A DNA stretch of 48,342 bases from a virus. Position 1 is the first letter of the stretch; the number at the start of each line of letters is the position of its first letter. Below, in pieces: positions 4,969 to 42,604 of this stretch. Location of the stretch: IMG/VR virus record IMGVR_UViG_3300029821_000008. One strand, written 5' to 3'. The position numbers were made by a program, and so were the translations under genes. The notes beneath the pieces were generated by a model that was not told where the DNA came from, did no database searches, and saw nothing but the letters and a program-made list of their open reading frames with translations.

Positions 4969-4970
4969 AT

Positions 4971-7716: not shown

Positions 7717-7720
7717 AATT

Positions 7721-8485
7721 ATGAGAATCGCAATAGTCTGTACATATTTCCAAAGACAATTTCAGTTAAATAAGACTCTTTTATCCATTGCCAAAAGTTC
7801 ACATAAAGACTTTGAGGTCATAATTGTTGACGATTGTTCGCCGGATGATATAATACTACCTGAGGTTGATTTTAAGGTCACTGTGATTAAGATGAAGGAT
7901 AAGACCTGGACGAATCCCGAGCCTGCTTATAATATCGGAATAATCGAAGCCCTGAAAGGTAATCCTGACATTATAATACTTCAAAATGCAGAGTGCTATC
8001 ATGAAGGTGATATTTTAACTAATGCTCAAAGGATAACTTCTGAGAATTATATTTCATTCGGGTGTTATTGCCTTAATGAAGAAACTACTTTCAAAGAACA
8101 TAATATTTCGGAAGTAATCCAGTCAAGTAACATTGGAGCTGTGGATAACGGTCAAAATGCATGGTATAACCATCCTGTTTTTCGTCCCGTTGGTTATGAT
8201 TTTTGCAGTGCGATAACTGCTGATAATCTCAGAAAGCTAAACGGTTATGATGAGCGATTTTCTTTGGGCTGTGCTTATGGTGATGACTATTTGATTGAAC
8301 GGGTCCGAATGTTAGGATTAAAGATTGAAATCACTGAATATCCTTTTGTAGTTCATCAGTGGCACTATTCGAATCCTGGTCATCCTGATCATGAATTACT
8401 TTGCAAACGCAATGCAGAACTATTAAAACAGTTGGTTCCTGAAAATAAGTATAAAGCTATTCACTTAATGACTCCTGATTTATGA
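7721..8485 (+). CDS. Family 2 glycosyltransferase
   Basis: Motifs: MRIAIVCTYF..., EVIIVDDCSPDD, and LNGYDERFSLGCAYGDDYL (the Glyco_transf_7C-like tail typical of GT2). Confidence 0.75.
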   Translation: MRIAIVCTYFQRQFQLNKTLLSIAKSSHKDFEVIIVDDCSPDDIILPEVDFKVTVIKMKDKTWTNPEPAYNIGIIEALKGNPDIIILQNAECYHEGDILTNAQRITSENYISFGCYCLNEETTFKEHNISEVIQSSNIGAVDNGQNAWYNHPVFRPVGYDFCSAITADNLRKLNGYDERFSLGCAYGDDYLIERVRMLGLKIEITEYPFVVHQWHYSNPGHPDHELLCKRNAELLKQLVPENKYKAIHLMTPDL

Positions 8486-9006
8486 AAGATACTCCCGGAT
8501 GGTTTGACTTTGCAGACTTCTATGATTTTATTGCAGCTCATTTTAATGAAGGTACGTTTGTTGAAATTGGAGTATGGAAGGGGCTTTCAATTAAGTATTT
8601 GGCCGAAAAGGTAAAGAATAAGAATATTAAAGTTTTCGGCCTTGATACGTTCAAAGGAACTCCCGGGGAACATGATGATGATATCGATATAATCAATAAC
8701 AACTTACTTAAAACGTTCCTTAAAAATGTTATAGGTACGGGAATTCAGGCTCTTGTAGGCCGAAGCGATGAAGGACATGTGTTTTTTGACGATGAAAGTA
8801 TTGATTTTCTTTTCATAGACGCCGATCATCATTACGAAGCTGTAAAAAAAGATATTGAATTGTGGTACCCAAAGATTAAAAAGGGCGGTATTATTTCAGG
8901 TCATGATTATTATATTCAGGATCAGAACGGGGTAGTGTTAGCAGTTAATGAGGCTTTCCCTGATGTTAAAATATATTCCGGCAGTGTATGGTACAAAGTA
9001 AAGTAA
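8482..9006 (+). CDS. Class I SAM-dependent methyltransferase (Methyltransf_24-like)
   Basis: ATGA overlap with the upstream gene. Motifs: GTFVEIGVWKGLS, IDFLFIDADHHYEAV, GGIISGHDY. Confidence 0.7.
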   Translation: MKDTPGWFDFADFYDFIAAHFNEGTFVEIGVWKGLSIKYLAEKVKNKNIKVFGLDTFKGTPGEHDDDIDIINNNLLKTFLKNVIGTGIQALVGRSDEGHVFFDDESIDFLFIDADHHYEAVKKDIELWYPKIKKGGIISGHDYYIQDQNGVVLAVNEAFPDVKIYSGSVWYKVK

Positions 9007-9752
9007 TTGATTGCTTCATGTTTTTCAATGAAGTTGAACTTCTTGATCTGAGATTAAGAACCTTAAAGGATTATGTTGATTATTTTGTACTGGCAGAGAT
9101 AAATATAACTCATTCCGGCAAGCTAAAGCCATATTATTTTGATGAGTATAAACATCTTTTTGCTGAGTACAATATCATTCACTTAAAAGATATCGCTTAC
9201 CCTCAGTCGAATCCGTGGATAGTGGAAAATGCTCACAGGAACATGCTTAATCATTTTGATTGTGATCCTGATGACTATGTGATAATTTCTGACCTGGATG
9301 AGATCCCGAATCCTGAAAAGATTCATCAGGGAATTGAGCTAGGTTATCACTCATTCGGCTTTCATCAGGAACTGTACTGCTATTATGTGAATTGTAAGTC
9401 ATCTCAGGTTTGGGCCGGATCTGTCTGTACGAAAAGAAAATACATAAAGTCACCTCAGGATGTAAGAAACAATCGTTGTAATCAGCCTTTCAACTTTATT
9501 AACGGCGGCTGGCACTACACTTCAATGGGTGGCAAGGATCGGATAAGGCTAAAGTTTGATTCATTTGCTGAAACTGATTTTAACGTGGATCAATACATGA
9601 ATGATCAAAACCTGGATCAATGTCTACAGACCGGAAAGGATCTAACCGGAAGAACTGAGAGTTGTTTTCAAAAACAGTTTATAACTGAAAGCGAAGTGAC
9701 TCATAAAGAAGTTTTGACATGGAAGAATGATTATCCTGAATTTTGGAAATGA
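8988..9752 (+). CDS. GT17-like glycosyltransferase (beta-1,4-GlcNAc-transferase III-like family)
   Basis: The N-terminus VIDCFMFFNEVELLDLRLRTLKDYVDYFVLAE, together with ISDLDEIPNPE and GGWHYTSMGG, matches my recollection of the GT17 signature. Confidence 0.6.
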   Translation: MVQSKVIDCFMFFNEVELLDLRLRTLKDYVDYFVLAEINITHSGKLKPYYFDEYKHLFAEYNIIHLKDIAYPQSNPWIVENAHRNMLNHFDCDPDDYVIISDLDEIPNPEKIHQGIELGYHSFGFHQELYCYYVNCKSSQVWAGSVCTKRKYIKSPQDVRNNRCNQPFNFINGGWHYTSMGGKDRIRLKFDSFAETDFNVDQYMNDQNLDQCLQTGKDLTGRTESCFQKQFITESEVTHKEVLTWKNDYPEFWK

Positions 9753-10846
9753 GAGTTTTATTAATTAATCCCTGGGAGGGTGAAGTTTTCCCGACTCCTG
9801 CAGTTGGTTATTTACAATCAACTTTAAAGAGTAATGGAATTGAAGTTACTGCAACTGATTTGCTTTACGGGTCAGATGATTACGATTTAGTTGCCGTTAC
9901 TTTTCATTCATTCTCGGTAAAACATGCTCAAAAGATCAGAGAACACTACAAAGGTCGTTTGATTTGCGGTGGTCATCATCCGTCTGCTTTGCCAGAACAA
10001 ATGTTATCAATTGGCTATGATCAGGTAATTGTCGGAGAGGGCGAAAAAGCGATCATGGAAGTTGTTAACGGGAATATTTCAAAAATCATCAAAGGTGAAA
10101 TCTCAGAAATAGATTCAATTCCTTTCCCGGATTACTCAGGTTTGAACTTTTGGGGTACAATGGGAATACCTGTAATTACTTCCCGTGGCTGTCCTTTTTT
10201 ATGCTCATTCTGCGGTTCCACTTCATTTTGGGGCCACAAATACCGTATGCGATCTGCAGCCAATGTTTTGCAAGAGCTTGAATTAAGGGCAAGGGAAGGA
10301 TATAAGACTTTCATGGCTGAAGATGATAATTTCACCGCAAACAAAAAACGAGCTTTAGAAATCTGTTCCGGAATAGCTGAAATGGGAGTTTTCGAGTGGC
10401 AATGTGCTTCCCGTGCTGAATCTCTAGATGAGGAACTTTGCAGGGCTTTAAAATTAGCCGGCTGTAAAACTGTTTGGCTTGGTGTTGAATCTTTAAGCCA
10501 GGAATCACTTGATCGGTGCAATAAAAACACCACAGTTGAAAAGATGCTAAAAGGAATCGAGACAGCCGAAAGATTTGGCATTGAAACTATGTCACAGTTC
10601 ATTGTAGGACTTCCGGGCGACTCAGTGAAGGATATTCAACTCACAGTACAAAACATCCGCAAAAGTTCTATAAAGCGCAAAGGGACAAATATACTTTGGA
10701 TACTTCCCGGAACGGAAGCTTATAGAATCGCAAAACAAAAAGGCTTTAGTGATGAAATATATTTGCAGGATAATTCTTTATTTTATACATTTGAACAAAA
10801 CATGGAGACTTTAAGATATTGGTGTTCGCTAATTGAAAGAGTATGA
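9749..10846 (+). CDS. B12-binding-domain (class B) radical SAM enzyme
   Basis: ATG 9749 forms an ATGA overlap with the upstream stop; the track start 9743 is a TTG. The N-terminal domain is Rossmann-like (MRVLLINPWEG...LICGGHHPS). It is followed by the radical SAM cluster motif TSRGCPFLCSFCGS (CxxxCxxC). Confidence 0.75.
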   Translation: MRVLLINPWEGEVFPTPAVGYLQSTLKSNGIEVTATDLLYGSDDYDLVAVTFHSFSVKHAQKIREHYKGRLICGGHHPSALPEQMLSIGYDQVIVGEGEKAIMEVVNGNISKIIKGEISEIDSIPFPDYSGLNFWGTMGIPVITSRGCPFLCSFCGSTSFWGHKYRMRSAANVLQELELRAREGYKTFMAEDDNFTANKKRALEICSGIAEMGVFEWQCASRAESLDEELCRALKLAGCKTVWLGVESLSQESLDRCNKNTTVEKMLKGIETAERFGIETMSQFIVGLPGDSVKDIQLTVQNIRKSSIKRKGTNILWILPGTEAYRIAKQKGFSDEIYLQDNSLFYTFEQNMETLRYWCSLIERV

Positions 10847-11193
10847 GACTACTGACCTACCTTAAAAATCAACCTTTAATTCTTTGGATTTGGATAAAAG
10901 AAACCAAAATAGTCGGATTCTTTAAATCACTCTGGATATTACTTTTCAATTCAATCAAACAGCCTGCAATACTTCACGGCTATTTTAATGAGTGGTTTGC
11001 CCGTCAGTACAGAGCAAAGAGAGAACTCTATTGGCACAGAACGTGGAACCAGATGGGCAAGGAGCAGTTTATACTTCCTTTTCTTCCGGGAAAATTAATT
11101 GTCTGCTCAAAACTTGAATTGGAGGTCTACAAAAAGAAAGGTTTGATCAGTAAGAACGCATCTATAAGAAAGCTAACAAAAAAGTCATTATGA
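10843..11193 (+). CDS. Hypothetical basic/hydrophobic protein inside the glycan operon
   Basis: 116 aa with ATGA overlaps at both ends. It has hydrophobic N-terminal segments (LILWIWI, LWILLF). No family was recognised. Confidence 0.5.
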   Translation: MRLLTYLKNQPLILWIWIKETKIVGFFKSLWILLFNSIKQPAILHGYFNEWFARQYRAKRELYWHRTWNQMGKEQFILPFLPGKLIVCSKLELEVYKKKGLISKNASIRKLTKKSL

Positions 11194-12071
11194 GGATAGC
11201 AATAGTTGGCTCAGAGGGAAACATAGGTTCACAACTTGTGCCGCATTTAAAAAGTCAGTGGCACGTTATTCATAGATGCGATCAAGTGCAGGGATTCGCA
11301 CCTGATTACTCGGTTGTTAATATTCTCAATTCAGGTGACCTATTAAAGGTTTTCCTGGACTTCGAGCCCCAGGTAACGATCCTGCTTGCTGCAATGGTCA
11401 GCCGGGTAACGTGTGAAGCCTCGCCGCATCTGACAATAGATACCAATCTGACAGGACTTAATAACGTAATTCAGTTATGCAAGGCGTTTGATTCAAAGTT
11501 GGTTTACTTTTCCACATCAGAGGTTTATGGCAATATCGGGGGTGTATTGAGTGAAGACCGGGAATGCAAACCGAATAATTTATATGGACTAACTAAGTAT
11601 TTAGGTGAAAAGTTGGTGCAGTACGAGTTAAAGAATTATTTAATCGTGAGGCCGTTCATGTTTTACCGGGAAGGAGAAAAAACAGGAGAGAATCACAGCG
11701 CAATGATTCGTTTCGCTTATCACCTGTCGAGAAAAGAAAAGATAACTGTTCACAAAGGCTCCCTGAGATCCTGGCTGCATATCTCAGACGGAGTAAGAAT
11801 CATTGAGGCTCTTTTGTATCAGAAAGAATCTCATATTGTGAATATCGGATCAGGAGAACTGATAAGGACTGAATTGCTTGCAGCCAAAATTTGCGCTTAT
11901 TTCAATCTTAAGTATGAAGACTATGTTGATGAATACGAACTGCCTGGCAAAATGACCCTTGAAAAGATACCGGATATTACAAGGCAGACAGAACTCACTA
12001 GATTAATGCCTGAGATTACTCTTGACGAGGGGATAAAAAGAGTTTGTGATAAAATAATTTTGCTTAACTGA
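11190..12071 (+). CDS. NAD-dependent sugar epimerase/dehydratase (extended SDR)
   Basis: Motifs: MRIAIVGSEGNIGSQL (GxxGxxG), FSTSEVYG and YGLTKYLGEK (YxxxK). Confidence 0.8.
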   Translation: MRIAIVGSEGNIGSQLVPHLKSQWHVIHRCDQVQGFAPDYSVVNILNSGDLLKVFLDFEPQVTILLAAMVSRVTCEASPHLTIDTNLTGLNNVIQLCKAFDSKLVYFSTSEVYGNIGGVLSEDRECKPNNLYGLTKYLGEKLVQYELKNYLIVRPFMFYREGEKTGENHSAMIRFAYHLSRKEKITVHKGSLRSWLHISDGVRIIEALLYQKESHIVNIGSGELIRTELLAAKICAYFNLKYEDYVDEYELPGKMTLEKIPDITRQTELTRLMPEITLDEGIKRVCDKIILLN

Positions 12072-28479: not shown

Positions 28480-28625
28480 CGAATGAAAAAAAGGATTTGG
28501 ATAAGTTTTGGAGAGATTTGATATTTGCTGCCTGCGGAAAAGACCCTGGCAAAATGAATGAGGTTGTTAAGATGGATGTATTTGATTTTTTTGCTTACAT
28601 TGATAATATAAAGAGCAATGGATAA
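27979..28625 (+). CDS. Tail assembly chaperone, frameshifted GT-like product (27979..28374 joined at -1 to 28374..28625)
   Basis: The downstream ORF (track 28401..28625) is in the -1 frame relative to 27979..28479 and ends overlapping the tape measure start. The predicted fusion is about 215 aa. Confidence 0.55.
28368..28374 (+). other. -1 programmed ribosomal frameshift slippery heptamer T_TTT_TTT
   Basis: The zero-frame codons are cct ttt ttt tac. The -1 frame opens at 28359, just after a TGA, and stays open to 28625. Confidence 0.65.
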
Positions 28626-30741
28626 CGTGGAAATTCGCTTGGTGACAAACAATGCCAGTGCTGTAAAGGGAATCCGGGAGGTTGCTGCTGAATCCCAGAA
28701 ACTTCATACAAACACTGAGCGTCAACAGAAAAGACAGATCGGTCTTATTGCTGATATTGAAAAAGAGCTCGCAAATCTTCAGACAGCCCAGAAGAATGCA
28801 ATGACTATTGAGCATATTGAAAAGTACAATAAGAAAATTGCAGAAGCGAAAAAGAACCTCGAGGCGTATAATAAAGCCGGTGTTGAATCAGAAAAACAAA
28901 CAAGCTCGCTTTCGCAGACAATAGGCAAGTGGGTCGTTGGATTGGGACTGGCCACAGTAGCACTCAGGGCCGTAAAAGATGCTGTTTTGGCTACTACTCA
29001 CGGAATGAATGCTTTTAACATAGCTGCCGCTACTGGTAAACAGATGATGTATAACCTTGTTACTGGGTCTTCTGATTTAACAAAAGGGCTAAAAGGAGTA
29101 ATCGAGGCTCAGAAAGAGTTAAACAGATTAAGGATACAGGACAAAGTAGATACTTACAATGCAAAAATTGAGTTACTTCAGTTTAATATAGCTCTCATTA
29201 AGGCAAAAGATCAAACAAAGAGCGTCACTGAAAGAATTGCTGAATATGATAAAGCGATAGAGCACAAAAGAAAGGCCACTGAAATAGAAATCAAGTCAAC
29301 GGAAGATCAGATAGCAGCCTATGAAAAGATTCGTAAAGAGAGCCCGAAGAATGAAGATGCGCTCATGAAAATTATCGAACTTGAAACACGGTTGATTGAT
29401 CTTCGCATAAATCAAACTTCAGCCCTGAAAGAGATCAGCTCTATGCGGTCGGGACTGCTTAAGAAAGAACGCCAGGATATGTTTGATCGTTGGTTTGCTG
29501 AAATTGAAACTGAAAATAAAGCCTATGCAGAAAAACTCAAGGCTCAAAAGAAATACTTAGACCTCTCACAGAAACTCCTGGATGAATACGAAAGATCAAA
29601 CATTGATTCTTTAACGGGTGCTGAAAAGTTAAGAGCTATCAGGGATTTTGGTCTTAAGCAGATCAGGGAACTCATGATTATTCTCTCAGAAGCCGGGAAG
29701 ATCACAGCGGAGCAGGATGAAATGTTCACGAAGCTCGGAGAAAATGTTATAAAGTCTTACAAAGAGGGAATGAAGAAAGAGGCAAAAATTCCCTTAAAAG
29801 ACAAAGAAGCAATATCTAAGGCACTGCTGGCAGGGCTCCCCATTAAGGAAGGAATACAAGAATACGGCGGTGTTGCTCCGACGGGAATGGAGGAGTTCTC
29901 AGTTTGGAAACTACTTGGTATTGACCCTGATGATGACGAAGGGAAACGGGCTATTGATAATTTAAAATCGGCGACTGCTGAAGTATTTAAAATCATTGAT
30001 GACACTTATCAAAAAAGAGTTGATGATGCCGAACGGACACGAAGTCTGTTAGACACCCGAATTTCAGAGGCTCAGAGTGCTTTAGAATCAGAGATAAGAC
30101 TTCATGAGGCCGGATATGCTTCTAATATAGCTGCCAAGCAGAAAGAAATAGAAATGCTTAAGGCGCAAAGAGAAAAAGCTTTAAAAGAGGAAGAAAAAGC
30201 GATTAAGGCTCAAAGGCAGATGGATGCCATTATGCAGGCATCCAGCCTATTAACAGCATCAGCCAATATAATCAAAGGCTTTTCAAAGTTGCCCTTAATC
30301 GGACAAATACTTTCTATTGCAGCCATTGGGGCCATGTTTGCTGCTTTCGCTGCTGCCAGAGTACAGGCGAGTAAAATAACAAAGCTCGCAGCAGGTGGCC
30401 ACGGTGAAGTCACAGGGCGTTTACACTCTCAGGGCGGTGAAAGGTTCTCAGATCATATCGAAGTCGAACAGGGTGAACGATGGGGCGTACTTAACCGGTC
30501 TGCATCCCGAAAATATGGAACTGTTTTTAATAAGATGGTTGATTCATTTAATAAAGACAATCTCTCCGTTGGAAAAGGTTTGAATATAAACAATATCTCA
30601 ATCCAAAATGAGGGGCCAAACAAGCGACTGGATGAAGTGAATAGTAACTTAAGACAGATACGGTCAAAGGAGGAAATAATAGTCTTAAACGGGATGACAG
30701 TGTATAAAAAAGGAAACTCAGTAAGGGTAATTAAGAAATGA
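28618..30741 (+). CDS. Tail tape measure protein
   Basis: 707 aa. It has long charged, probably helical stretches and a hydrophobic segment (LIGQILSIAAIGAMFAAFAAA), and follows the chaperone pair. Confidence 0.8.
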   Translation: MDNVEIRLVTNNASAVKGIREVAAESQKLHTNTERQQKRQIGLIADIEKELANLQTAQKNAMTIEHIEKYNKKIAEAKKNLEAYNKAGVESEKQTSSLSQTIGKWVVGLGLATVALRAVKDAVLATTHGMNAFNIAAATGKQMMYNLVTGSSDLTKGLKGVIEAQKELNRLRIQDKVDTYNAKIELLQFNIALIKAKDQTKSVTERIAEYDKAIEHKRKATEIEIKSTEDQIAAYEKIRKESPKNEDALMKIIELETRLIDLRINQTSALKEISSMRSGLLKKERQDMFDRWFAEIETENKAYAEKLKAQKKYLDLSQKLLDEYERSNIDSLTGAEKLRAIRDFGLKQIRELMIILSEAGKITAEQDEMFTKLGENVIKSYKEGMKKEAKIPLKDKEAISKALLAGLPIKEGIQEYGGVAPTGMEEFSVWKLLGIDPDDDEGKRAIDNLKSATAEVFKIIDDTYQKRVDDAERTRSLLDTRISEAQSALESEIRLHEAGYASNIAAKQKEIEMLKAQREKALKEEEKAIKAQRQMDAIMQASSLLTASANIIKGFSKLPLIGQILSIAAIGAMFAAFAAARVQASKITKLAAGGHGEVTGRLHSQGGERFSDHIEVEQGERWGVLNRSASRKYGTVFNKMVDSFNKDNLSVGKGLNINNISIQNEGPNKRLDEVNSNLRQIRSKEEIIVLNGMTVYKKGNSVRVIKK

Positions 30742-32459
30742 ACTATACTTTTCATCTTACAATCGGATCCACGGTAACGGAAGTTTTCCCTTTGAACTTT
30801 CTGGAGACTTCTTTAGTTGACGAACAAGAACAGAATAAGATCTTTTACCGTCGGAAGTTTAACGGCAAATTAACTTTCGTTAACAATAACGGAGATGACG
30901 ACTTTGACCTTCTTTACGCTGTTCAGCAAACAACTCCTTGTTCTAAATTGTTATTTGAGATAAAGAAAAACGCCGTCAACTACTGGAGTGGTTATTTCTC
31001 TGTTTCAGAAGGTGATTTTGATTTGAATAAATGCACTTTTGAGGTCACCCCTTTGCCTGATGATGACTATGCCGAATTACTTGACAAAGCAGATGATCAG
31101 TACAATATTTTAAGTCGTACCTCTTACACAACAACTGCAGGGGCGTTTATTTATACCCGGTGCCGGATGCTTTATAATAACGCTATAGCTCCCGACAAAA
31201 CAAAAAACGTTCTTGAATACCTGGCAGATAATATTTTAACCGGGGTCGCAGTTTCGAGTACCTTCTTTACCGCAGCCACAAATCCGGCCACTTTAGCGGC
31301 CTCGCATGTTCGTTATCTGATGATAGCTCAGAAAAGTGACATAATAAGGAATCAATCCACGGATGCAGCCACGGTGGCAATGATGAGCTGGAATGACCTG
31401 ATGGAAATACTCTGGGGGATGTTTCAGGTCGTTTGGGATTACGATTCCAATACGAACACAATTAACGTCGAGCATATTTCTTTCTGGTCCCCTTCGGCAG
31501 GTATGGATCTTCGCTCTCAGCCAATAGCAAAGAATAATAAATTTGCTTACCTGAAAGAGAAGATGCCGAAGTATGAAAAATTCTCATGGATGGAGGCGCT
31601 TGCAGAAAACTTTAAGGGTCGCATGATTCAGTACATCTCCGAATGTGTTGATCAGAATCCGGAAAGTAACACCCTTGAAACGATTCTTCCGGTCACCACG
31701 GATTTAGAGTATATTCAGACTACTCCACTAGAAATTGCCGACGAGGGGTTTGTTGTTATTGCTAATACCTACTCCGGAGGTGTTTATCTGGTTGAAAGAA
31801 TGCTCGGAAAATATCTTAATGAGGTAAGATATAACATGCATCTTTCGTGGGCTAACCTTCATGATTCTTATTACAGGCACGAGAGAGTTCTCCCTGAGGG
31901 GTATATGAACGGTGCTTTAACTGATTTTTGGTCAGCTCAAAAAAACAAGTCCCAGGATTGTTTCGCTATCGTTTGCCCGGCGGACGGTTACGACCCTGCG
32001 GATTATATAACTACGGAGCTGGGTGAAACTTACTTCGGGGGTCAAAAGGGACGGGTTTTAAGCTCGTCTTTAAATCCCAAAGGCGAAATGAAGTTTCAGT
32101 TAGGCTATTCTGACCCGGGAGTTGCTCAGGTTCCTATAACAGAGAGTAAATGGATACTTATTACCGAGGGCGAATGCGGATCATTCTCTGCTGTTCTTTC
32201 AGAGGCGGCCGATGCTGATCTTCCTATAGTAATAAAGTACATTATTTATGATGAGGATTTTAATGTGGTTTGCTCTGATACGGTTGACGGGGAGACATGG
32301 ACGATAACCACGGGACTAACTTCAGACACGTTTTCGCTCACTCTTTGTGGCGTGATCCCGGCCGGCGGATGTATCAGATACACTAATATACCTTTTGAAG
32401 TTACCGGTAAGCCTGAATGGCCTATTGGATTTAATCCTGCTAATTGCAATTGCGAATGA
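30738..32459 (+). CDS. Putative distal tail / baseplate protein
   Basis: 573-aa ORF with an ATGA overlap onto the tape measure stop. The call is positional only. Confidence 0.35.
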   Translation: MNYTFHLTIGSTVTEVFPLNFLETSLVDEQEQNKIFYRRKFNGKLTFVNNNGDDDFDLLYAVQQTTPCSKLLFEIKKNAVNYWSGYFSVSEGDFDLNKCTFEVTPLPDDDYAELLDKADDQYNILSRTSYTTTAGAFIYTRCRMLYNNAIAPDKTKNVLEYLADNILTGVAVSSTFFTAATNPATLAASHVRYLMIAQKSDIIRNQSTDAATVAMMSWNDLMEILWGMFQVVWDYDSNTNTINVEHISFWSPSAGMDLRSQPIAKNNKFAYLKEKMPKYEKFSWMEALAENFKGRMIQYISECVDQNPESNTLETILPVTTDLEYIQTTPLEIADEGFVVIANTYSGGVYLVERMLGKYLNEVRYNMHLSWANLHDSYYRHERVLPEGYMNGALTDFWSAQKNKSQDCFAIVCPADGYDPADYITTELGETYFGGQKGRVLSSSLNPKGEMKFQLGYSDPGVAQVPITESKWILITEGECGSFSAVLSEAADADLPIVIKYIIYDEDFNVVCSDTVDGETWTITTGLTSDTFSLTLCGVIPAGGCIRYTNIPFEVTGKPEWPIGFNPANCNCE

Positions 32460-33280
32460 AAACAGTAATAACAACACTACCGATTTACGATAAACTGGCA
32501 AAACAGTGTTATCAAAGATCAAACGGAACAGGTCATGGGATTCATCCTATAATAAGCCCCTTAGAGAGACTTCCTTCATTTCAGTGGATAGACGGCACGG
32601 ACGGAGCCAGTACAGTGACTAAAATAGAGCTAATAAGCGAGACAGGGGCCGCTACGGATATAACGGCTTCACACTTTACTACATGCCCTAAACCGGCCTC
32701 GTTTGCCATATCAGGGGATGTTTATTTCCAGTATAAGGGAAATGCTTTGGATACTGATCTTCCGTGTGGTCGGTTTTATCTTAAGATCACAATGAATAAC
32801 TCTAAGATTTATTATAGTGAGTGGTTCCAGGTCGAGGACGTTTACGATAAAACGACTTATTCAAGTAAGTACCTGATTTTCGCTTTTACCAATACTTATG
32901 ATCTTGGGACAATTCTTTATCAGGACGGGTTCATTCAGACCCTTTGGATTGAATCTGAGACAATGGAGCCCTCATTTCCGCTGAAAGAGGAAGGACAGGA
33001 AAATGCTGACGGTCGCTTTATAAGGACTTTCGGCCGACAGACTAAGAAGTACACAGCCCGCACTAAAGTAGTTCCTGATTACATGGTTGACGTACTAAAT
33101 CGGATGAGACTATGCAGTTCAATTACTTTAAGGGACTTGGTCGGAGATTTGAATACAGTCTATAACGTGGAAGTTGAACACGAATGGTTGTTTGATGATA
33201 AGTACTACGCAAAAGTTGATTTGACGTTTGATTATGATGAGACTGTTTTAGTAAGTGGTTGCAATACGAACATTCCGTAA
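32456..33280 (+). CDS. Putative tail tip/baseplate protein
   Basis: ATG 32456 forms an ATGA overlap with the upstream stop; the track start 32444 is a TTG. The call is positional only. Confidence 0.3.
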   Translation: MKTVITTLPIYDKLAKQCYQRSNGTGHGIHPIISPLERLPSFQWIDGTDGASTVTKIELISETGAATDITASHFTTCPKPASFAISGDVYFQYKGNALDTDLPCGRFYLKITMNNSKIYYSEWFQVEDVYDKTTYSSKYLIFAFTNTYDLGTILYQDGFIQTLWIESETMEPSFPLKEEGQENADGRFIRTFGRQTKKYTARTKVVPDYMVDVLNRMRLCSSITLRDLVGDLNTVYNVEVEHEWLFDDKYYAKVDLTFDYDETVLVSGCNTNIP

Positions 33281-33301
33281 AAACTAATTTAAAGTTTATA
33301 A
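33281..33301 (+). repeat. 21-nt motif AAACTAATTTAAAGTTTATAA (copy 2)
   Basis: Identical to 25410..25430, and starts directly after the TAA at 33278-80. Confidence 0.85.
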
Positions 33302-33320
33302 GAAAAGATAAGATATGAAG

Positions 33321-33328
33321 TAAATTTG
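33321..33328 (+). promoter_or_regulatory. Bacteroidota-type -7 box TAaaTTTG
   Basis: Exact TAnnTTTG match 25 nt upstream of ATG 33354. The possible -33 element (TTTA) lies inside the 21-nt repeat. Confidence 0.45.
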
Positions 33329-33353
33329 AAGTATTAATTTAAAATAAACAATT

Positions 33354-33911
33354 ATGTCGGTACTCGTCCTTAATCCGTGCCCCACAGACTGCACGGGATC
33401 ATTAGAAGCGGTAAGCTTCAACGAATGCACCCCTGATATACATTACGGGGAGATATCCAAACTATATGTCGCACGGTCAGATGCGGCTGATTTTACCAGT
33501 CCTGACCTGTTGGCAGAATGGACTGCAAGGTTATCGGACACGGCGGTTGATGCCGATAGTATCCGTACTTTAATCGGTATCGGAGAATTGGCTCCGGCTG
33601 AAAAAACTGAAATACTGATTTCCGGCGGTCGTACTATTTATTCACCAAAGACTTTTAATATTCTCTTCGAGGTGGATGAAACAAACGACACGAACTATGA
33701 ATTTCTTCTCTCAACGGAGTGCAACCTGAAATTCAAATTCTGGTTCGAGACTTCAGACGGGATGCTTTACGGAGGAAAAACCGGAATAGAGGCCGTATTT
33801 GGCATGGATGCCCCGATTCCAAAGGGAAGAGAGGAAATCGCTAAGTTCATGGTTTCTATCAAGTGGAAATCAGCTAACAGTCCTTTGAGAAATATTTCAC
33901 CAATGTTTTAA
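33354..33911 (+). CDS. Hypothetical structural protein (possibly a tail tube-like protein)
   Basis: 185 aa, with its own promoter-like element. No motif-level support for a function. Confidence 0.35.
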   Translation: MSVLVLNPCPTDCTGSLEAVSFNECTPDIHYGEISKLYVARSDAADFTSPDLLAEWTARLSDTAVDADSIRTLIGIGELAPAEKTEILISGGRTIYSPKTFNILFEVDETNDTNYEFLLSTECNLKFKFWFETSDGMLYGGKTGIEAVFGMDAPIPKGREEIAKFMVSIKWKSANSPLRNISPMF

Positions 33912-33929
33912 TCTTTAAAATCAATAGAA

Positions 33930-34172
33930 ATGGCAGAATGTAAAGTAATGCCCGCTACACTATTAGAAATGTTAGCGAGTACAATAATGACAGATGACGA
34001 CGGAGATACATATTTCAATGTCATTTGCTTCACCGGAACCGGTCTCGAATCGGCTTTCACTTGCGGACTTCAGGGTCAGGATTTGGAACAGTTCATTGTC
34101 AATAATGGCTTCGGAGTTGATGCCAATGGCAAGCCCGCTATTAAGTTGAATATTTGTACACAGGAGGCATAA
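33930..34172 (+). CDS. Hypothetical protein
   Basis: 80-aa acidic ORF. Confidence 0.4.
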   Translation: MAECKVMPATLLEMLASTIMTDDDGDTYFNVICFTGTGLESAFTCGLQGQDLEQFIVNNGFGVDANGKPAIKLNICTQEA

Positions 34173-34525
34173 TGGCGTTTGGTATTGAATGCGGTGGCAT
34201 GGTTCCAGCCCCGCTGTCGATTGGAGGAACCGAAGGGGTGTTCCCGTTATTTGTTACGGGAGCCGATCCTGACATAGGAGGCACAGACGGTCAGATAGTT
34301 GACATGACTGCCGAATCAGAGGATTACGCCCCTGCTGATATCGGAAGCGGCACGTTTGTAATTGTTATTGAGACAGATGCGCCTATTGAGGTACAACTTG
34401 CTAACGGTACCGATTTTACAATTACCCAGGCACAGGCAACGGCTCACCTAGGTCAGTGGTATCCTGCGCTTTTGAAAAAAGTATATAAGACCGGTACGAC
34501 TGGTACATTTTCAGTAGGACAATAG
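34172..34525 (+). CDS. Hypothetical protein
   Basis: ATG 34172 forms a TAATG overlap and is preceded by a rare perfect AGGAGG at 34162-67. The track start 34154 is a TTG. Confidence 0.45.
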   Translation: MAFGIECGGMVPAPLSIGGTEGVFPLFVTGADPDIGGTDGQIVDMTAESEDYAPADIGSGTFVIVIETDAPIEVQLANGTDFTITQAQATAHLGQWYPALLKKVYKTGTTGTFSVGQ

Positions 34526-34547
34526 AGTGACCGAGGTCGCTCTTTTT
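34525..34547 (+). terminator. Rho-independent terminator
   Basis: Stem gagtgac (34525-31) / gtcgctc (34536-42) with one G-U pair, loop CGAG, then TTTTT at 34543-47. Confidence 0.65.
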
Positions 34548-34561
34548 AATAACTTGCAACT

Positions 34562-36403
34562 ATGGCAATAGGAAACGCAATAGGAATACCGTTTAAATTG
34601 GGGAGTTCGTACTGGACTCCACAAAGAAAGCCAACTTATATTGCATTAGAAATTTTATCTGATACATCAATTAAGGTTTATTGGCAAGACCCTATTGACA
34701 ATACACCTGATGGAATAAAAATATATGCAAATGATGTATTAAAGGAAACAGTTGCTTTTGGAGTAGAAACAAAAGATATTACTGGACTTACTGCAAACAC
34801 AGAGTATACAGTTAAGGTTGTTGCATATAAAGGGACACATGAATCAGCAGCCATATCAGATATTGCACGAACATTTGAGAAGTGGTTTCTAGCAGGGGGT
34901 ATTTCTGCTGATAATGCTAAAGTAGCTTATTATCCAAAAGGAAAGGCAACTCTTGCAGAAAGTTATATTAATGAAGTTAATCCTGGGACTAATGATCAGG
35001 TTGCAGTTGTAGCTCCCACACTTGATGCAGATGGGTGGAATTTTAACGGATCACAATACCTAAGGAATGGACTTGTACCTGTTAATAATCAAACATGGTC
35101 GTCAATAGTAAGATTCTCAAATTGGGTTGCTGCTAATAGTGCAAGTATATTTGGTATTTATGAAAGTGCTGACAAGCAATTCAGGCTAAGTATTGACAAT
35201 GCTTCAAATGCTATTTATGGAGGCAATGGCGGTCAAAGTGTTGGTATTGTACCAAAATTAACGCAGGGCGTTTTAGCTTTTGCGGGAGCAAATATATTCA
35301 TTAATTCAGTAGTTAATGGAGCTACCATTCCGGTGGGTTCAGGGAGTTTTACATATGATGAATATACAGGACAGGTTCATTATAGTTCTAATTCAGGATG
35401 GTTTACAGGTAAAATACAATCAAGGGCAACATATAATGCAGTTTTAACAGCGGCACAGATTTACAAGCTAACTGTTGAAGTGGAAGATTATGCAGTTCAG
35501 AAAAAGAATTACGTTGCTCGTAAATTTGGTGCTTTAATATGTTGGGGACTGCCTTCGTTTTTTAATTACACTGCATCTGAAAAAGCTCCTGCAAATGGAA
35601 ATCCAGATTTATTTAATCCGACAGGTATAGACATGGATGAATGGCTTGATACGCTTGTAGCATCAGGTATGAAGTATGCTATTCTGACAGTGAAACATCA
35701 TGACGGTTTCTGCTTATGGCCTTCAACTTATTCGGCAGGATTATACACTCCTTATTCAATAGCACAGTCAGCATGGTATACGGCAAATGGCAATCGGGAC
35801 ATTACTGCCGAGTTTTGTACAAAATGCAGAGAAAGAAACTTAAAGGTTGGATTGTATTTTTCAATCCTTGATGAAACATGGGAGGCAAGAACAAGCAAAG
35901 ATGAGACAACGGATGCTGCTGCGTATATTGCAATGATACAGGGTCAATTAAATGAACTGCTTTCTAATTACGGGAATATTGATTCTTTATGGTTTGATGG
36001 TTGGCAATGGCACACAGGGTATGCAAATATTCCTTATTCAACAATTTATAACTACATCAAAGGGAAGCAGGCTAATTGTGTGGTAGTAGATAATAATAGA
36101 GCAACGGTTGCTTTATCATCACCGACAGAGATATTGGTATATGAAAAGAACGGCACAGGTGATATTCCTGAAGCAAACTATAAACTCGCTGAGGAAACAC
36201 AAACCATAAGAAGCGATGTTCATTGGTACTGGCATCCAGATGATGCACAGACAGTAGCAAAATATTACACCAAAGCAGAAGTAAACAACTTGAAATCTTT
36301 GATTAATACAAGAGGTGGTGCTTTCTTACTTGGTGTAAGTCCTGATACTTCAGGTCATTTACCTGCTGTTCAAAAGGAATTACTTGAATCATTGACAACT
36401 TAG
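34562..36403 (+). CDS. Tail-associated FN3 / LamG-like lectin / GH29 alpha-L-fucosidase fusion protein
   Basis: An FN3-like segment (SIKVYWQDP...LTANTEYTVKVVAYKG) is followed by a ConA/LamG-like segment. The GH29 motifs are KFGALICWG, SGMKYAILTVKHHDGFCLWPS, KVGLYFS and IDSLWFDGW. Confidence 0.75.
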   Translation: MAIGNAIGIPFKLGSSYWTPQRKPTYIALEILSDTSIKVYWQDPIDNTPDGIKIYANDVLKETVAFGVETKDITGLTANTEYTVKVVAYKGTHESAAISDIARTFEKWFLAGGISADNAKVAYYPKGKATLAESYINEVNPGTNDQVAVVAPTLDADGWNFNGSQYLRNGLVPVNNQTWSSIVRFSNWVAANSASIFGIYESADKQFRLSIDNASNAIYGGNGGQSVGIVPKLTQGVLAFAGANIFINSVVNGATIPVGSGSFTYDEYTGQVHYSSNSGWFTGKIQSRATYNAVLTAAQIYKLTVEVEDYAVQKKNYVARKFGALICWGLPSFFNYTASEKAPANGNPDLFNPTGIDMDEWLDTLVASGMKYAILTVKHHDGFCLWPSTYSAGLYTPYSIAQSAWYTANGNRDITAEFCTKCRERNLKVGLYFSILDETWEARTSKDETTDAAAYIAMIQGQLNELLSNYGNIDSLWFDGWQWHTGYANIPYSTIYNYIKGKQANCVVVDNNRATVALSSPTEILVYEKNGTGDIPEANYKLAEETQTIRSDVHWYWHPDDAQTVAKYYTKAEVNNLKSLINTRGGAFLLGVSPDTSGHLPAVQKELLESLTT

Positions 36404-36466: not shown

Positions 36467-37414
36467 ATGGGCTTTTTCAGAAAATTAAAGACAATAGATG
36501 AGATGCTGCCTGGGTTTTGGCTTAAAAAAGAAACAGAAGTAAGCCATAAAGTAGCTTTGACTTATCATTCGATGTGTCTTGTTTTTGCTGACTGGCTTGA
36601 GACAAAAGGGAAGCGGAATCTTCCTATGATAAAGATCACCCAGGATGATATGACAGAGTTTTTCTATTATCTGGGCCGGGATAAGAACCTGGATAAGCCA
36701 ACATGTGAAAAATATTGCATGAACATAAAAGCCTTCTGGAAGTATGCCGAGGAGTATGGAGAGGTTAATGAGCTGCCATTTGATCATATAACATTTCCGA
36801 GAAAGAAAAAGGACCAGGGAGCTGAGATGATACAAGCAAGTCATTTAAGGTTAGTACTTGAAGAAATGAGAGATCACCAACCACACTTGTTTTTAGCTGC
36901 TATGACTCAGTATTATTGTTTTATAAGACCTGGAAAAGAGTTAAGGTTATTAAAAGTAAACGACATTGATTTAGACAAAGGGCTTATAACTATCAGACAA
37001 GAAAACGCTAAAAACAAAAAGAAACAAATAGTAACTATGCCACAACAACTTATAGATATTTATAAACAATTTGGTATAGAAAACGAAGATAAAAATTATT
37101 ATGTATTTGGTAAAAAGAAAAAACCAGGTACAATTCCATTTTCTGTAAACATGTTAAGGTGGCAATTTAACAAAGTTAGAGAAAAACTTGATTTACCAAA
37201 AGAATACAAATGGTATAGTTTTAAACACAGTGGGGCGAGTAATTTACACCTTAGTGGCATATCAATGCGTGAGTTGATGGATCAACTTCGACATACAAAA
37301 CTAGAAGCGACTAGTCATTATTTGAAAAAGCACTGTGGTATTGTTAATGATAGAATAAGGAATAATTTTCCTATGCAATGTTATGGAATTGGCGACTGTA
37401 AAATACCAATATAA
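36467..37414 (+). CDS. int: Tyrosine recombinase / integrase
   Basis: An N-terminal SAM-like domain, box I (CFIRPGKELRLLKVNDID), a Lys in ENAKNKKKQ, and box II-like (YSFKHSGAS...LRHTKLEATSHYL) with a terminal Tyr. Confidence 0.8.
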   Translation: MGFFRKLKTIDEMLPGFWLKKETEVSHKVALTYHSMCLVFADWLETKGKRNLPMIKITQDDMTEFFYYLGRDKNLDKPTCEKYCMNIKAFWKYAEEYGEVNELPFDHITFPRKKKDQGAEMIQASHLRLVLEEMRDHQPHLFLAAMTQYYCFIRPGKELRLLKVNDIDLDKGLITIRQENAKNKKKQIVTMPQQLIDIYKQFGIENEDKNYYVFGKKKKPGTIPFSVNMLRWQFNKVREKLDLPKEYKWYSFKHSGASNLHLSGISMRELMDQLRHTKLEATSHYLKKHCGIVNDRIRNNFPMQCYGIGDCKIPI

Positions 37415-37485: not shown

Positions 37486-37872
37486 ATGAATCACGAATGC
37501 ACAATGAAAGACGAATTAACTGAGATGGTTAAAAGTCTTCAAAACTCTGTCAAATGGACACTCGGCATTTGCGCCGGTACGATATTGTTTTTGGTAATTG
37601 CCATTGTTACTGTGCAAACTAAGCAGACAGCTCATGAGGTGTGGTTGCAAAAGATAAACGACAATTATGCTCCACTGGTAGTCGTGCAGGACATATCAAA
37701 AGACAATAGTAATCTGATTAAGATTTTACAGATGCTTCCTGAGACAACAAAAAATGATCCTCGTTACATTAATGCAGTTAACGAAAGTCAGTCATTCCAA
37801 ACTGAGGCATTAAGAAGGGCTGCAAGTGCAAAAAGAAGCACCGGCGGTGCAGGAATTGGAGGCTCGGAATGA
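37486..37872 (+). CDS. Membrane-anchored protein (single TM)
   Basis: TM segment WTLGICAGTILFLVIAIVTV. 128 aa, at the head of the lysis region. Confidence 0.45.
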   Translation: MNHECTMKDELTEMVKSLQNSVKWTLGICAGTILFLVIAIVTVQTKQTAHEVWLQKINDNYAPLVVVQDISKDNSNLIKILQMLPETTKNDPRYINAVNESQSFQTEALRRAASAKRSTGGAGIGGSE

Positions 37873-38040: not shown

Positions 38041-38850
38041 ATGGGAATTGAAATTACTAATAAAACAAAAGAGAAAAGAGTTGCATCATGTATAGCTTCA
38101 TGGAAGAACAGAAATGATTATATACAAGACATAAAACATCCCTATATTTATAATGTATGGAGATCTTTTATGTTTACACTAAGAGGGAAGAAAATAGGAT
38201 ATGATAAATCGTGGAGCGACTATAGAACATTTTATAATGATGTATTTTCTGCATATACAGAAGGATATAGATTTCAACGCATAAATAAAAAAGAAGCATT
38301 TGGACCGTTAAATTATATATGGGTTCCTGATAATTCACTTTCAATTTTAAGGGATAACACTATCTTAATTACTTATAACGGCGAAAGCCTATCAATGAAA
38401 GAATGGGCTATTCGATTAAATGTATCTTATCCCGGGATAAAGAATCGTTATTATAAACATAAAGAATATTCTGTAGATGAGGTACTTCTTGGTAAACATA
38501 AATCCCCTCCAAAGCCAAAAATGAATGCAAATGAATTATCTTATCAAAAATTAAGAGATAAGGCATCAAAAATGTGTTCATCTTATAGAACAAAAGATCG
38601 AAAATCAAGATTTGAGTTTAATTTAGATATAAAATGGCTTATTGAGAATATATTGTTTAAACCGTGTTCATATTGTGGAACCAAAGATCATATTGGGTGT
38701 GATAGGATAGATAATAACAAAGGGCATACAAAAGATAATGTAATTCCTTGTTGTTATGTTTGTAATACAGTAAGAGGAAATAACTTTACTGTTGACGAAA
38801 TGAAAATATTAGGTAAGTGTATATCTGGAATAAATAAAAATAGACAATGA
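38041..38850 (+). CDS. HNH homing endonuclease
   Basis: C-terminal CSYCGTKDHIGCDRIDNNKGHTKDNVIPCCYVCNTVRGN, an HNH motif with flanking Cys pairs. Confidence 0.8.
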   Translation: MGIEITNKTKEKRVASCIASWKNRNDYIQDIKHPYIYNVWRSFMFTLRGKKIGYDKSWSDYRTFYNDVFSAYTEGYRFQRINKKEAFGPLNYIWVPDNSLSILRDNTILITYNGESLSMKEWAIRLNVSYPGIKNRYYKHKEYSVDEVLLGKHKSPPKPKMNANELSYQKLRDKASKMCSSYRTKDRKSRFEFNLDIKWLIENILFKPCSYCGTKDHIGCDRIDNNKGHTKDNVIPCCYVCNTVRGNNFTVDEMKILGKCISGINKNRQ

Positions 38851-39278
38851 ATCATTTTTCAGAAACATCAAAAGCAAGATTAGAAACTTGCCACAGGGAT
38901 CTCAGATTATTATTTGCTCACGTTATACAAGATTTTGACTGTACTATTGTTTGCGGCCACAGAGATAAACCAGAACAAGATAAAGCCTTTGCGGAAGGTA
39001 AAAGCAAATTACCATACCCACAATCTAAACATAACTCTAATCCTTCGTGGGCTGTCGATGCTGCGCCGTATATTGACGGGAAGGTTGATTGGTCACGGGA
39101 TCAGCTTTTATTCTTTGCAGGGTACGTAAAAGGCAAGGCAGATCAATTATATAAAATCGGAACCATGTCACACCGGATAAGACTTGGTGCTGACTTCTCA
39201 GGTGACAACGATATTAATGACGAAAGATTTAAAGATGAACCTCACTTTGAACTTATACGCAATGAAAAAGATATTTAA
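38847..39278 (+). CDS. Endolysin, peptidase M15 (VanY / L-alanyl-D-glutamate peptidase-like)
   Basis: Motifs: CGHRDKPEQDKAF, SKHNSNPSWAVDAAP and EPHFEL, a zinc-ligand H..D...H pattern. Confidence 0.75.
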   Translation: MNHFSETSKARLETCHRDLRLLFAHVIQDFDCTIVCGHRDKPEQDKAFAEGKSKLPYPQSKHNSNPSWAVDAAPYIDGKVDWSRDQLLFFAGYVKGKADQLYKIGTMSHRIRLGADFSGDNDINDERFKDEPHFELIRNEKDI

Positions 39279-41779: not shown

Positions 41780-42604
41780 ATGAAAATAATTCGGGTCTTT
41801 CCGAGAAAAACAAATGCAACTCCGAGCGATGACAATGTTGTTATTAATCAGATGCCTGATTTATATGATGAAGCCGATCAAATTCATGTATCCGTTACTT
41901 TTACATGGGATATTCCGAGGGCGGAATTATTATATAAGGCATGGGGTTATGCAGGAAATGTTTCTATCGGAGGTCCGGCATTTAATCAGAGTGGGAACGA
42001 TTTTATTCCCGGAATGTATTTAAAGCATGGATATACCATTACATCAAGGGGATGCCCTAATAAATGTTGGTTTTGTTCTGTGCCTAAAAGAGATCCTGTT
42101 TTAAGAGAATTTGAAATTAAGCCGGGATATAATATTGTTGATGACAATTTACTTGCTTGTTCTGATCAGCACATAATCAAAGTATTTGAAATGTTAAAAA
42201 CACAAAGTCAACCAGCGATATTCAGCGGAGGTATTGAGGCAAAACTATTAAAACAGTGGCACGTTGATTTATTTGCATCTATACGGATGAAAGAGTTGTT
42301 TTGCGCTTATGATACGCCCGATGACTATGAGCCATTGGTTGAAGCCGGAAAGCTGCTTAAACAGGCCAATATCACTTATGAGAATCGGAAAGCACGTTGT
42401 TATGTTCTAATCGGGTATCCAAATGATACTTTTGAGAAAGCATTAAAACGTATTAAGCAAACATTAGATGCCGGATTTTTCCCATTTGCAATGCTTTGGA
42501 GAGATGAAAAAGGTGAATTTAAAAGAGAATGGAAACAGTTTCAGAGACAATGGGCAAATCCAATTATAACAGCAGTAAATAGTAAAATATTGTTGAAAAC
42601 CTGA
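41780..42604 (+). CDS. Orphan radical SAM enzyme (short N-terminal Rossmann-like region plus CxxxCxxC core)
   Basis: TSRGCPNKCWFCSVPK cluster motif. 274 aa, with no partner biosynthetic genes nearby. Confidence 0.7.
   Translation: MKIIRVFPRKTNATPSDDNVVINQMPDLYDEADQIHVSVTFTWDIPRAELLYKAWGYAGNVSIGGPAFNQSGNDFIPGMYLKHGYTITSRGCPNKCWFCSVPKRDPVLREFEIKPGYNIVDDNLLACSDQHIIKVFEMLKTQSQPAIFSGGIEAKLLKQWHVDLFASIRMKELFCAYDTPDDYEPLVEAGKLLKQANITYENRKARCYVLIGYPNDTFEKALKRIKQTLDAGFFPFAMLWRDEKGEFKREWKQFQRQWANPIITAVNSKILLKT

Follow-up and report, generated by a model that had tools for sequence, protein, structure and literature searches.

The viral record IMGVR_UViG_3300029821_000008 (48,342 nucleotides; hereafter the window, meaning this whole stretch of DNA at its full length) carries at 34562..36403 on its plus strand an open reading frame (ORF) of 613 amino acids with an ATG start (coordinates include the stop codon), the product of which is a member of glycoside hydrolase family 29 (GH29) with a fibronectin type III (FN3) domain and a ConA/LamG-like module fused to it. 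This order of parts had been read in an original prediction for the locus, together with the motifs KFGALICWG (aa 321-329), KHHDGFCLWPS (aa 378-388) and LWFDGW (aa 476-481), and both were confirmed by the ORF, Pfam matches, structural models and homologues. The Pfam family Alpha_L_fucos (PF01120) was matched at aa 301-611 (E 5.1e-41; 141.7 bits against a cut-off of 25.2; profile positions 14-336 of 345), which bears out the earlier GH29 call, and the same family was matched by 20/20 aligned relatives; the fn3 match covered aa 24-99 (E 7e-7; 29.8 bits, cut-off 25). No Pfam match was obtained for the middle segment of the window protein, while Laminin_G_3 (PF13385) was matched by 8/20 homologues (best E 3e-6) and by several stand-alone homologues. 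In our reading the GH29 protein most probably rides on the virion as a tail-end accessory enzyme, its attachment to the particle being plausible.

From the N-terminus, the protein (all parts on the plus strand) begins with a peptide of approximately 24 residues (34562..34633), disordered in the model, in which a Gly-rich stretch is followed by SYWTPQRKP (SxYWxTRxP in relatives), conserved in the alignment. The FN3 domain (aa 24-103; 34631..34870) was identified by the Pfam match and by comparison of the family profile with fibronectin FN3 structures (E 2e-13), its beta-sandwich strands lying at aa 26-103. It is followed by the ConA/LamG-like jelly-roll module (aa 105-296; 34874..35449), assigned from the Pfam matches of homologues and a model of the module; a helical linker (aa 297-319; 35450..35518; helices at aa 297-308 and 312-319 in the model) joining this lectin-like module to the barrel; and the GH29 (beta/alpha)8 catalytic domain (aa 320-613; 35519..36400), supported by Pfam, alignments to the Protein Data Bank (PDB), the model and Foldseek. 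The whole-protein AlphaFold2 model, built on 20 homologues (pLDDT 84.4, pTM 0.73), consists of a disordered start (aa 1-17, pLDDT <50), an FN3 sandwich (26-103), a jelly-roll (119-291), the helical linker and a TIM barrel. Because the modelled barrel runs to the last residue, the protein possesses neither a C-terminal beta-sandwich nor an F5/8 type C domain. When hydropathy was scanned over residues 1-45, none of 24 relatives showed a signal-peptide-like segment (maximum 10-residue Kyte-Doolittle mean of 1.40 in the window protein), and the window protein has no lipobox-like Cys near its N-terminus and no extra C-terminal sorting domain.

When the sequence of the C-terminal half was searched against the PDB, GH29 enzymes alone were returned, the best being Bifidobacterium infantis AfcB, BT2192, 5K9H and 9EU1, with solved GH29 enzymes matching at E 4e-27 to 1e-39. 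In Foldseek the whole model matched AlfB, AfcB, BT2192, 9EU1 and AlfC at E ~1e-18 (target-normalised TM-scores 0.50-0.71), its (beta/alpha)8 fold being superposable on those of solved GH29 enzymes.

About 24 full-length homologues share this architecture at 38-49% identity to the window protein, and active-site residues were compared between 24 members of this clade and 96 other GH29 hits. The predicted nucleophile, Asp479 of LWFDGW (codon 35996..35998, plus strand), is Asp in 24/24 clade members and 96/96 other hits, in line with the conservation of this residue across the family (PMC9548408), and aligns with D172 of AfcB (numbering counted from the alignment; the title of PDB entry 3UET names a D172A/E217A mutant). 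The nucleophile equivalents used for comparison were TM0306 D224, AfcB D172 and FucA1 D225. The position of the general acid/base varies among GH29 enzymes (E266 in TM0306; E288 in Bt2970; D276 in FucA1, where E289 is also essential; PMC9548408), and the window protein has a candidate at two such spacings: Glu528 (36143..36145, plus strand; nucleophile +49, compare TmaFuc E266 and FucA1 D276), which is Glu in 24/24 clade members and 91/96 other hits and aligns with the E of IFERD in 9EU1, and Glu544 (36191..36193, plus strand; nucleophile +65, compare Bt2970 E288 and FucA1 E289), which is Glu in 23/24 clade members and aligns with the E of LETCET in 9EU1. Like D479 and E528, Y432, W477 and R550 are invariant in the 24 relatives. 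Alignment thus showed the catalytic Asp and the candidate acid/base Glu residues to be conserved, and since the nucleophile and a Glu at both acid/base spacings are conserved, catalysis is likely to have been retained. That these residues are invariant or nearly so across relatives sharing only 38-49% identity argues for an active enzyme rather than a relic.

The sugar pocket is less conserved. KFGALICWG, taken in the original prediction for a hallmark of the family, is not a canonical GH29 motif: it marks the site at which a near-universal His (of HWG/HFN) became Cys. This residue, Cys327 (codon 35540..35542, plus strand), occupies the place of the O4-binding His34 of TmaFuc; the position is Cys in 20/24 clade members and His in 91/96 other GH29 hits, and HMMER alignments to 9EU1, 5K9H, 4ZRX and 3EYP put a His there, as does every aligned solved GH29. 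In TmaFuc, His34 and His128 together bind the axial O4 of fucose and line the C6 pocket, and His34 has been called 'invariant in alpha-L-fucosidases' (PMC9774334). Fucose specificity is therefore doubtful, and with it, as far as the sequence can tell, the label alpha-L-fucosidase (EC 3.2.1.51 / 3.2.1.111) that the original prediction gave the protein, because it is at a defining position of that activity that the residue has changed. The next pocket element, His379-His380 of KHHDGF (TmaFuc His128/His129; codons 35696..35701, plus strand), is kept in the window protein and replaced in 11/24 clade members, so that C327 and H379/H380 vary among relatives while the catalytic residues stay fixed. 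Given the His-to-Cys change and the variable HH pair, the removed sugar is probably not plain L-fucose, or not only L-fucose, and it is likely to differ between phages, as for a host-range determinant.

The same substitutions are what an alternative without catalysis would build on, namely that the barrel performs no useful hydrolysis and, with the LamG-like module, forms a sugar-binding head for receptor or mucus adherence, as has been proposed for Ig-like decoration proteins. Two bacterial GH29 enzymes with the His-to-Cys change showed only nmol/min/mg activities on the aryl substrates pNP-fucoside, -glucoside and -galactoside (PMC9774334), and FN3/Ig-like domains on phage surfaces are able to bind glycans, e.g. 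Hoc binding fucose on MUC2 (PMC11853027). Against such an adhesin stands the (near-)invariance of the nucleophile Asp, both candidate Glu residues, Y432, W477 and R550 at 38-49% identity, and we consider it very unlikely.

Compared with solved GH29 alpha-L-fucosidases (Thermotoga maritima TM0306; Bifidobacterium longum subsp. infantis AfcB/Blon_2336, 3UES and 3MO4; BT2192, 3EYP; L. casei AlfB and AlfC; and the GH29A enzyme 9EU1), the window protein shares the Pfam family, the (beta/alpha)8 fold, the WFDG nucleophile motif, KHHDGF and the active-site Tyr, Trp and Glu positions, and its catalytic domain is close in size to those of the minimal enzymes AlfC (target-normalised TM-score ~0.70, rank 34) and BaGH29 (0.68, rank 49). 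It differs from them in the Cys at the O4-binding site, in the lack of a C-terminal beta-sandwich or F5/8 type C domain and of a signal peptide, in its N-terminal FN3 and LamG parts and in the location of its gene in a phage structural block. The N-terminal half of the barrel is most similar to GH29-B structures, whereas its C-terminal half was aligned only by GH29-A structures, HMMER alignments to GH29-B structures ending near residue 508-525, past strand 6. The window protein also lacks RW(I/V)GNE, which we take to be the acid/base motif of GH29-B, usually followed by an F5/8 type C domain. Within GH29-B the acid/base is conserved and can be assigned from sequence (PMC11189522), and on these sequence features the window protein is not a canonical GH29-B enzyme. 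Other GH29 members are altered at the His34 site, including the alpha-L-glucosidases ClAgl29A/B (Asp) and Caka_0506 and Caka_0536 of Coraliomargarita akajimensis (Cys) (PMC9774334); these are bacterial, lack an FN3/LamG fusion and, for ClAgl29A/B, have predicted signal peptides. Their likeness to the phage clade was compared at this pocket residue, which is Cys, as in the window protein, in Caka_0506 and Caka_0536, the two enzymes of very low activity on the three aryl substrates.

The middle module, modelled separately by AlphaFold2 (pLDDT 95.5), matched trypanosomal sialidases, domain 4 of a GH43 arabinanase, clostridial neurotoxin binding domains, CBM40 and a cyanophage tailspike in Foldseek. 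Although the fold is that of known lectin-like jelly-rolls (the C-terminal domain of Trypanosoma sialidases, AbnA GH43 domain 4, clostridial neurotoxin Hc, CBM40; E 7.5e-6 to 4e-4; query-normalised TM-scores 0.55-0.64, CBM40 0.41), these share only 10-20% sequence identity with the phage module, which forms a very large family of its own. A word-index search with the LamG segment alone gave three weak hits and was repeated with an alignment. The full-database search with aa 1-300 yielded 2311 clusters at E up to 0.001 (1088 at E up to 1e-10), most of them stand-alone proteins of approximately 210-240 aa aligned to aa 105-300 that share the motif WWLSGGI..AN..AAYQPKGA.SLA.SY.NLANPGT, with no source name beyond 'hypothetical protein' among the family's members (P0130-P0350). 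All three contigs read that carry the module without a GH29 domain were phage contigs: in L013 a stand-alone module (8001-8702) lies next to a Pel9A-like beta-helix protein; in L014 a tandem pair (7275-8666) lies near a capsid gene; and in L015 (8001-8681) the gene follows large genes of structural size in a phage with a family A DNA polymerase. Elsewhere the module is fused to a GDSL/SGNH esterase (P0157) or to a metallophosphoesterase (P0184), and in the viral contig L019 (51% GC) module (8983-9678, 231 aa) and Cys-variant barrel (9720-10607, 295 aa) are encoded by adjacent genes with a stop codon and ~40 nt between them. These swappable fusions and the split genes suggest a targeting or docking part to which different enzymatic heads are attached.

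In the window, the GH29 gene comes last, after a tail block (28618..34525, plus strand; PHROGs) that begins with a tape-measure gene (28618-30741; phrog_20660, tail length tape measure protein, E 8e-37) and continues with five genes for proteins of 573, 278, 185, 80 and 117/123 aa of unknown role; two further matches in this block, phrog_19383 and phrog_35885, are both of unknown function, and the block has no Pfam matches. The position at the end of the module, after tape-measure and distal tail genes, is as had been described. The large terminase (12976-14418) and portal (14464-16215) genes lie further upstream. A variant of the same phage (L004, JGI 3300038334 contig, locus 1105-7898) encodes an identical GH29 protein; in it the 573-aa gene after the tape-measure gene is called as two (290 and 219 aa), and genes for 335 and 183 aa replace those for 356 and 197 aa.

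Between the tail genes and the GH29 gene lies the feature recognised previously as a terminator, a terminator-like hairpin at 34524..34548 (plus strand) formed by a stem-loop at 34524-34543 (8-bp stem, 4-nt loop) followed by TTTTT. Its start falls within the stop codon of the 117/123-aa gene before it; its stem ends 18 nt, and its T run ~14 nt, before the ATG. This hairpin was not conserved upstream of the homologous genes in other phages, which adjoin or overlap the structural gene ahead of them, and attenuated read-through as a trait of the family was therefore dropped. A sigma-70 promoter scan performed no better than on shuffled sequence, no TAnnTTTG motif was present near the GH29 start, no terminator-like site was found downstream of the gene, and no tRNA genes were found in the window. 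Immediately 3' lies a tyrosine integrase gene (36467..37414, plus strand; Phage_int_SAM_5 domain), homologues of which follow the GH29 gene in L011/L012 (39% identity) and L018 (60%). It is followed on the same strand by a gene for a holin-like 128-aa protein with one predicted membrane span (37486..37872; weak XhlA match, E 0.002, below the Pfam cut-off), which is 33% identical to the product of 11964-12344 in L010, directly after the GH29 gene there, and by an endolysin gene (38847..39278; phrog_465, E 1.5e-29), with one homologue in L010 (65% identity), two genes past the GH29 gene, and another in L024, a short way downstream of the GH29 gene there. For most genes neighbouring the GH29 gene, PHROGs offered no family. 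An HNH endonuclease gene (38041-38850), lower in GC than any other gene of the window (28.6%, GC3 0.18), lies between the holin-like and endolysin genes; since the holin-like and endolysin genes are adjacent in L010, it looks like an inserted mobile endonuclease. A 124-aa ORF (16943-17317) between head genes shares 60% identity with one part of a GIY-YIG/NUMOD3 protein of 251 aa in L010 (8427-9182) and is probably, from this similarity, a shortened relative of a homing endonuclease.

The GH29 gene was correctly described as more AT-rich than the tail genes before it (37.5% GC against 42.0% for 28618-34525), yet it equals the genome mean (37.8%), so that the GC-rich outliers are the tail genes. 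Its GC at third codon positions (GC3) is 0.235 against 0.38-0.46 in the tail block, and lower values than in co-resident genes, by 0.10-0.27, were found in 6/10 backbones (GC3 0.20-0.32 for the GH29 gene of the window, L006, L008, L009, L011 and L016, other genes there averaging 0.35-0.50). The recurrence on several backbones points to movement among phages or a constraint on codon usage rather than to a recent bacterial origin. Low GC3 relative to the neighbours, the terminator just upstream and a homologous integrase directly adjacent in three backbones (window, L011/L012 and L018) would also suit a moron, that is, a lysogenic-conversion or auxiliary metabolic gene (AMG) expressed from the prophage that gives the host access to fucosylated glycans or a changed surface, and GH29 has been listed among 'AMGs' in a rumen virome survey. 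A lysogen could not, however, export a protein that has no signal peptide, evident lipoprotein signal or extra C-terminal sorting domain; the 18 nt between terminator and ATG leave no room for a promoter, with no TAnnTTTG motif nearby; and members of the family are also part of structural operons on contigs whose stretches read contained no integrase. Such a role for the gene is thus most unlikely.

The original prediction had further proposed recent acquisition, probably from a bacterial genome, and this was not supported. Every full-length relative whose contig was read lies on a phage-like contig, with identities no higher than 49%; among 185,579 GTDB genomes (one per species) no bacterial donor was found, the best match being a 34%-identical GH29 barrel of a Planctomycetota metagenome-assembled genome (MAG). 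In IMG/VR a scan with the single protein returned no relatives, and a profile scan returned 11 loci. Deposited phage records contained GH29 in six unannotated human-faecal contigs; the one read in detail (L017, MT835508.1, 6935-8359) was rejected as a member of the clade, being a canonical GH29-B (FCHFG, KHHDGF, DVRWIGNEAG; no signal peptide; an extra C-terminal region taken to be an F5/8 type C domain) beside the anaerobic ribonucleotide reductase gene NrdD, outside a structural block.

The other structural proteins of the relatives' contigs showed no detectable similarity to those of the window, including the tail proteins of L018 despite similar gene lengths, so the gene occurs on different backbones, at the end of structural blocks and often just before lysis genes or an integrase. 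In L011/L012 and L018 the fusion gene is followed by the integrase homologue. In L010 it comes after protease, capsid, portal and DUF6712 genes and directly before the homologues of the membrane protein and endolysin; L006 has the same head block, and in L009 the gene follows an SU10-type capsid gene. In L006, L008, L009 and L010 it abuts or overlaps the preceding gene of the block, downstream of head/portal genes. The clade member of L016 shares the N-terminal peptide, the FN3 domain and the Cys-variant barrel with the others but has another middle domain; its gene comes straight after those for a tape-measure homologue and a protein of 760 aa, downstream of Phage_tail_2 genes. In L024 the GH29 protein has Asn at the His34 site, and its gene lies ahead of an endolysin homologue. 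Two smaller genes recur around these loci. A protein of 83-100 aa (41-58% identity) is encoded directly before the GH29 gene in L006 (9325-9627), L009 (9748-9999) and L010 (9741-9998); no counterpart was present in L012, and its match to the 117-aa protein of the window is confined to 16 C-terminal columns (KKVYKTGTTGT vs RKIFxTGT; hhalign probability 5.6%, not significant). A DUF5675 protein (136-166 aa) is encoded a few genes past the GH29 gene in L011 (4485-4919), L016 (10283-10693) and the P0009 contig (12604-13104), and given this place, which in the window belongs to the endolysin, it may serve those phages as their lysis enzyme.

In the window, L010 and L024 lysis genes follow the GH29 gene, a late context. 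Its product could be a soluble enzyme of the lysis stage that is made in the cytoplasm and is not in particles but freed at burst, stripping fucose-type caps from capsule, slime and debris so that progeny are not trapped or neighbouring cells become accessible. The globular domains, the lack of a signal peptide and of a detectable virion-anchor domain, and a gene directly before the holin-like and endolysin genes in L010 and near the endolysin homologue in L024 (the same order appears in the window if the integrase and HNH genes are set aside) all agree with such an enzyme. By contrast, in L016, L006, L008 and L009 the gene is packed in structural blocks where it abuts structural genes, and the FN3-LamG half resembles proteins annotated as tail components, the matching entries of the viral library including 'minor tail protein', 'central tail hub' and 'ConA-like lectin'. 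Targeting by a lectin-like module would be useful to a soluble and to a virion-borne enzyme, and the present data hardly separate the two; we regard the soluble form as rather unlikely.

Our preferred reading, to which we assign about an even chance of being right, is of a late-made, lectin-guided GH29 exo-glycosidase of shifted specificity that removes a terminal alpha-L fucose-type residue and is carried on the virion as an accessory. From the residues, fold and gene neighbourhood we infer its catalytic activity, its substrate, its attachment to the virion and its role in adsorption alike. The protein would be made late, together with the structural proteins, and because it is so made and has no evident signal peptide, it would leave the cell only on or with virions. 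The lectin-like module would then dock it on a host-surface polysaccharide, FN3 serving as a spacer, and the GH29 domain, by the retaining exo-mechanism predicted for it, would clip a terminal alpha-L-linked fucose-type residue (6-deoxy-L-hexose). The surface glycan being thus uncapped or destroyed, the phage may reach its receptor, or may escape being held on debris. Trimming of mucin glycans, which had also been suggested, is conceivable.

Several observations weigh against this virion-borne enzyme. The hairpin parts the gene from the tail genes in the window phage, and adjacency to an integrase together with an unusually low GC3 are traits of accessory 'moron' genes. Its position relative to head and tail genes differs by backbone, at the tail end in the window and L016 and after head/portal genes in L006, L009 and L010. 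The protein matched no PHROGs family (E up to 0.01), no N-terminal anchor domain of a tail fibre or tailspike was recognised in it, and its predicted domains are globular rather than a trimeric fibre or beta-helix. The weak activities of the two bacterial His-to-Cys enzymes raise the further concern that the GH29 domain could be a poor enzyme or require an unknown substrate. Virion association in a tail-fibre position, as originally proposed, is accordingly favoured by the gene's place in the window and L016 and not by the head/portal neighbours in other backbones or by any known virion-anchor domain detected in the protein.

Phages are known to carry glycan-active enzymes on their virions, including tailspike endoglycosidases and lyases, endosialidases and SGNH esterase tailspikes. 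The window protein resembles these in the location of its gene at the end of a tail block, in its putative carbohydrate-binding module and in a specificity that is likely to vary among relatives, and differs from them in that it would be exo-acting on single terminal residues and has no beta-helix or known anchor domain. With Hoc of T4-type phages (PMC11853027) it shares an exposed FN3/Ig-type domain, and some GH29 backbones place the gene after capsid genes; the window protein differs in having a catalytic domain and no recognised capsid-binding domain, and in the tail-end position of the gene in the window and L016. A GH29-like 'depolymerase' was predicted in a prophage region of Curtobacterium, its proposed role being to strip modifications from receptors on the cell surface (PMC9862828). 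That case is a single prophage of a Gram-positive actinobacterium, recognised by HHpred to 6GN6, and it comes with no described FN3-LamG parts, no pocket analysis and no multi-phage family. In the published reviews and surveys searched there was no characterised phage GH29, and the FN3-LamG-GH29 architecture, its spread over unrelated phage backbones, the clade-wide His-to-Cys change and the stand-alone LamG family were not found described in the literature searched.

The GH29 protein occurs in identical form on 13 metagenomic contigs (~48.1-48.4 kb; several samples were represented), so that the window, a 48-kb phage genome carrying an integrase, is probably a whole genome. The scan of GTDB species genomes revealed no prophage copy of this phage. 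A Shine-Dalgarno core lies upstream of only 1/56 window genes, compared with 14% of random sequence windows, the leaders being A-rich, and seven intergenic TAnnTTTG motifs (3761, 7709, 22945, 33321, 38014, 40334 and 44070) lie 12-81 nt before genes, a pattern of gene starts that we take, from general knowledge of such starts, to be of Bacteroidota type. The nearest terminases (24-29% identity) belong to Bacteroides, Flavobacterium and Salinibacter phages, and the Phage_int_SAM_5 domain of the integrase points the same way. Judged by these signals the host is probably a member of the Bacteroidota, and the earlier assignment of the phage to such hosts is plausible. The early region of the window contains, in addition, a Prim-Pol/AAA_25 primase-helicase-like gene, a second, weak radical SAM gene and a DUF3799 gene (listed coordinates 1117-2865, 41780-42604 and 43136-44035).

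Just upstream of the terminase genes and ~22 kb upstream of the GH29 gene, the window carries a cluster of glycan-synthesis genes (7721..12071, plus strand) that encodes a GT2 glycosyltransferase (7721-8485), a Methyltransf_24/TylF-like O-methyltransferase (8482-9006), a GT17-like protein (8988-9752), a B12-binding radical SAM enzyme (9743-10846) and an RmlD-like NDP-sugar (sugar-nucleotide) reductase/epimerase (11190-12071), and that includes a 116-aa ORF. NCBIfam gave no name for the last enzyme, of the SDR type (best RmlD, 78 bits vs a cut-off of 224). Genes of this kind were found less than 10 kb from the GH29 gene in 5/7 other backbones (L006, L009, L010, L016 and the P0009 contig, the last with a whole sugar-nucleotide pathway gene set resembling a heptose or 6-deoxy-sugar route); L008 and L011/L012 showed none, and neither did the three LamG-only contigs. 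Glycosylation of virions is known for mycobacteriophages. From the co-occurrence it can be conceived, as an unlikely extension, that the Cys-variant GH29 and these genes form one write-and-erase system serving adsorption, release or superinfection. The phage would build a modified glycan, e.g. a methylated 6-deoxy-L-hexose, on virion proteins or on the surface of the infected cell, and the altered O4/C6 pocket of the carried glycosidase would recognise the modified sugar or the unmodified host version of it.

Phage enzymes acting on the surface sugars of hosts are mostly endo-acting depolymerases or esterases, and a phage-carried glycosidase that is exo-acting and removes caps would unmask receptors by another route. 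A phage-confined GH29 clade with a changed pocket would be a source of enzymes for rare L-sugars lacking known glycosidases, and a common, swappable LamG module would help to annotate many 'hypothetical' phage proteins. The recurrent company of glycan-synthesis genes, moreover, makes it a testable proposition that phages infecting Bacteroidota-type hosts add glycans to themselves or to those hosts.

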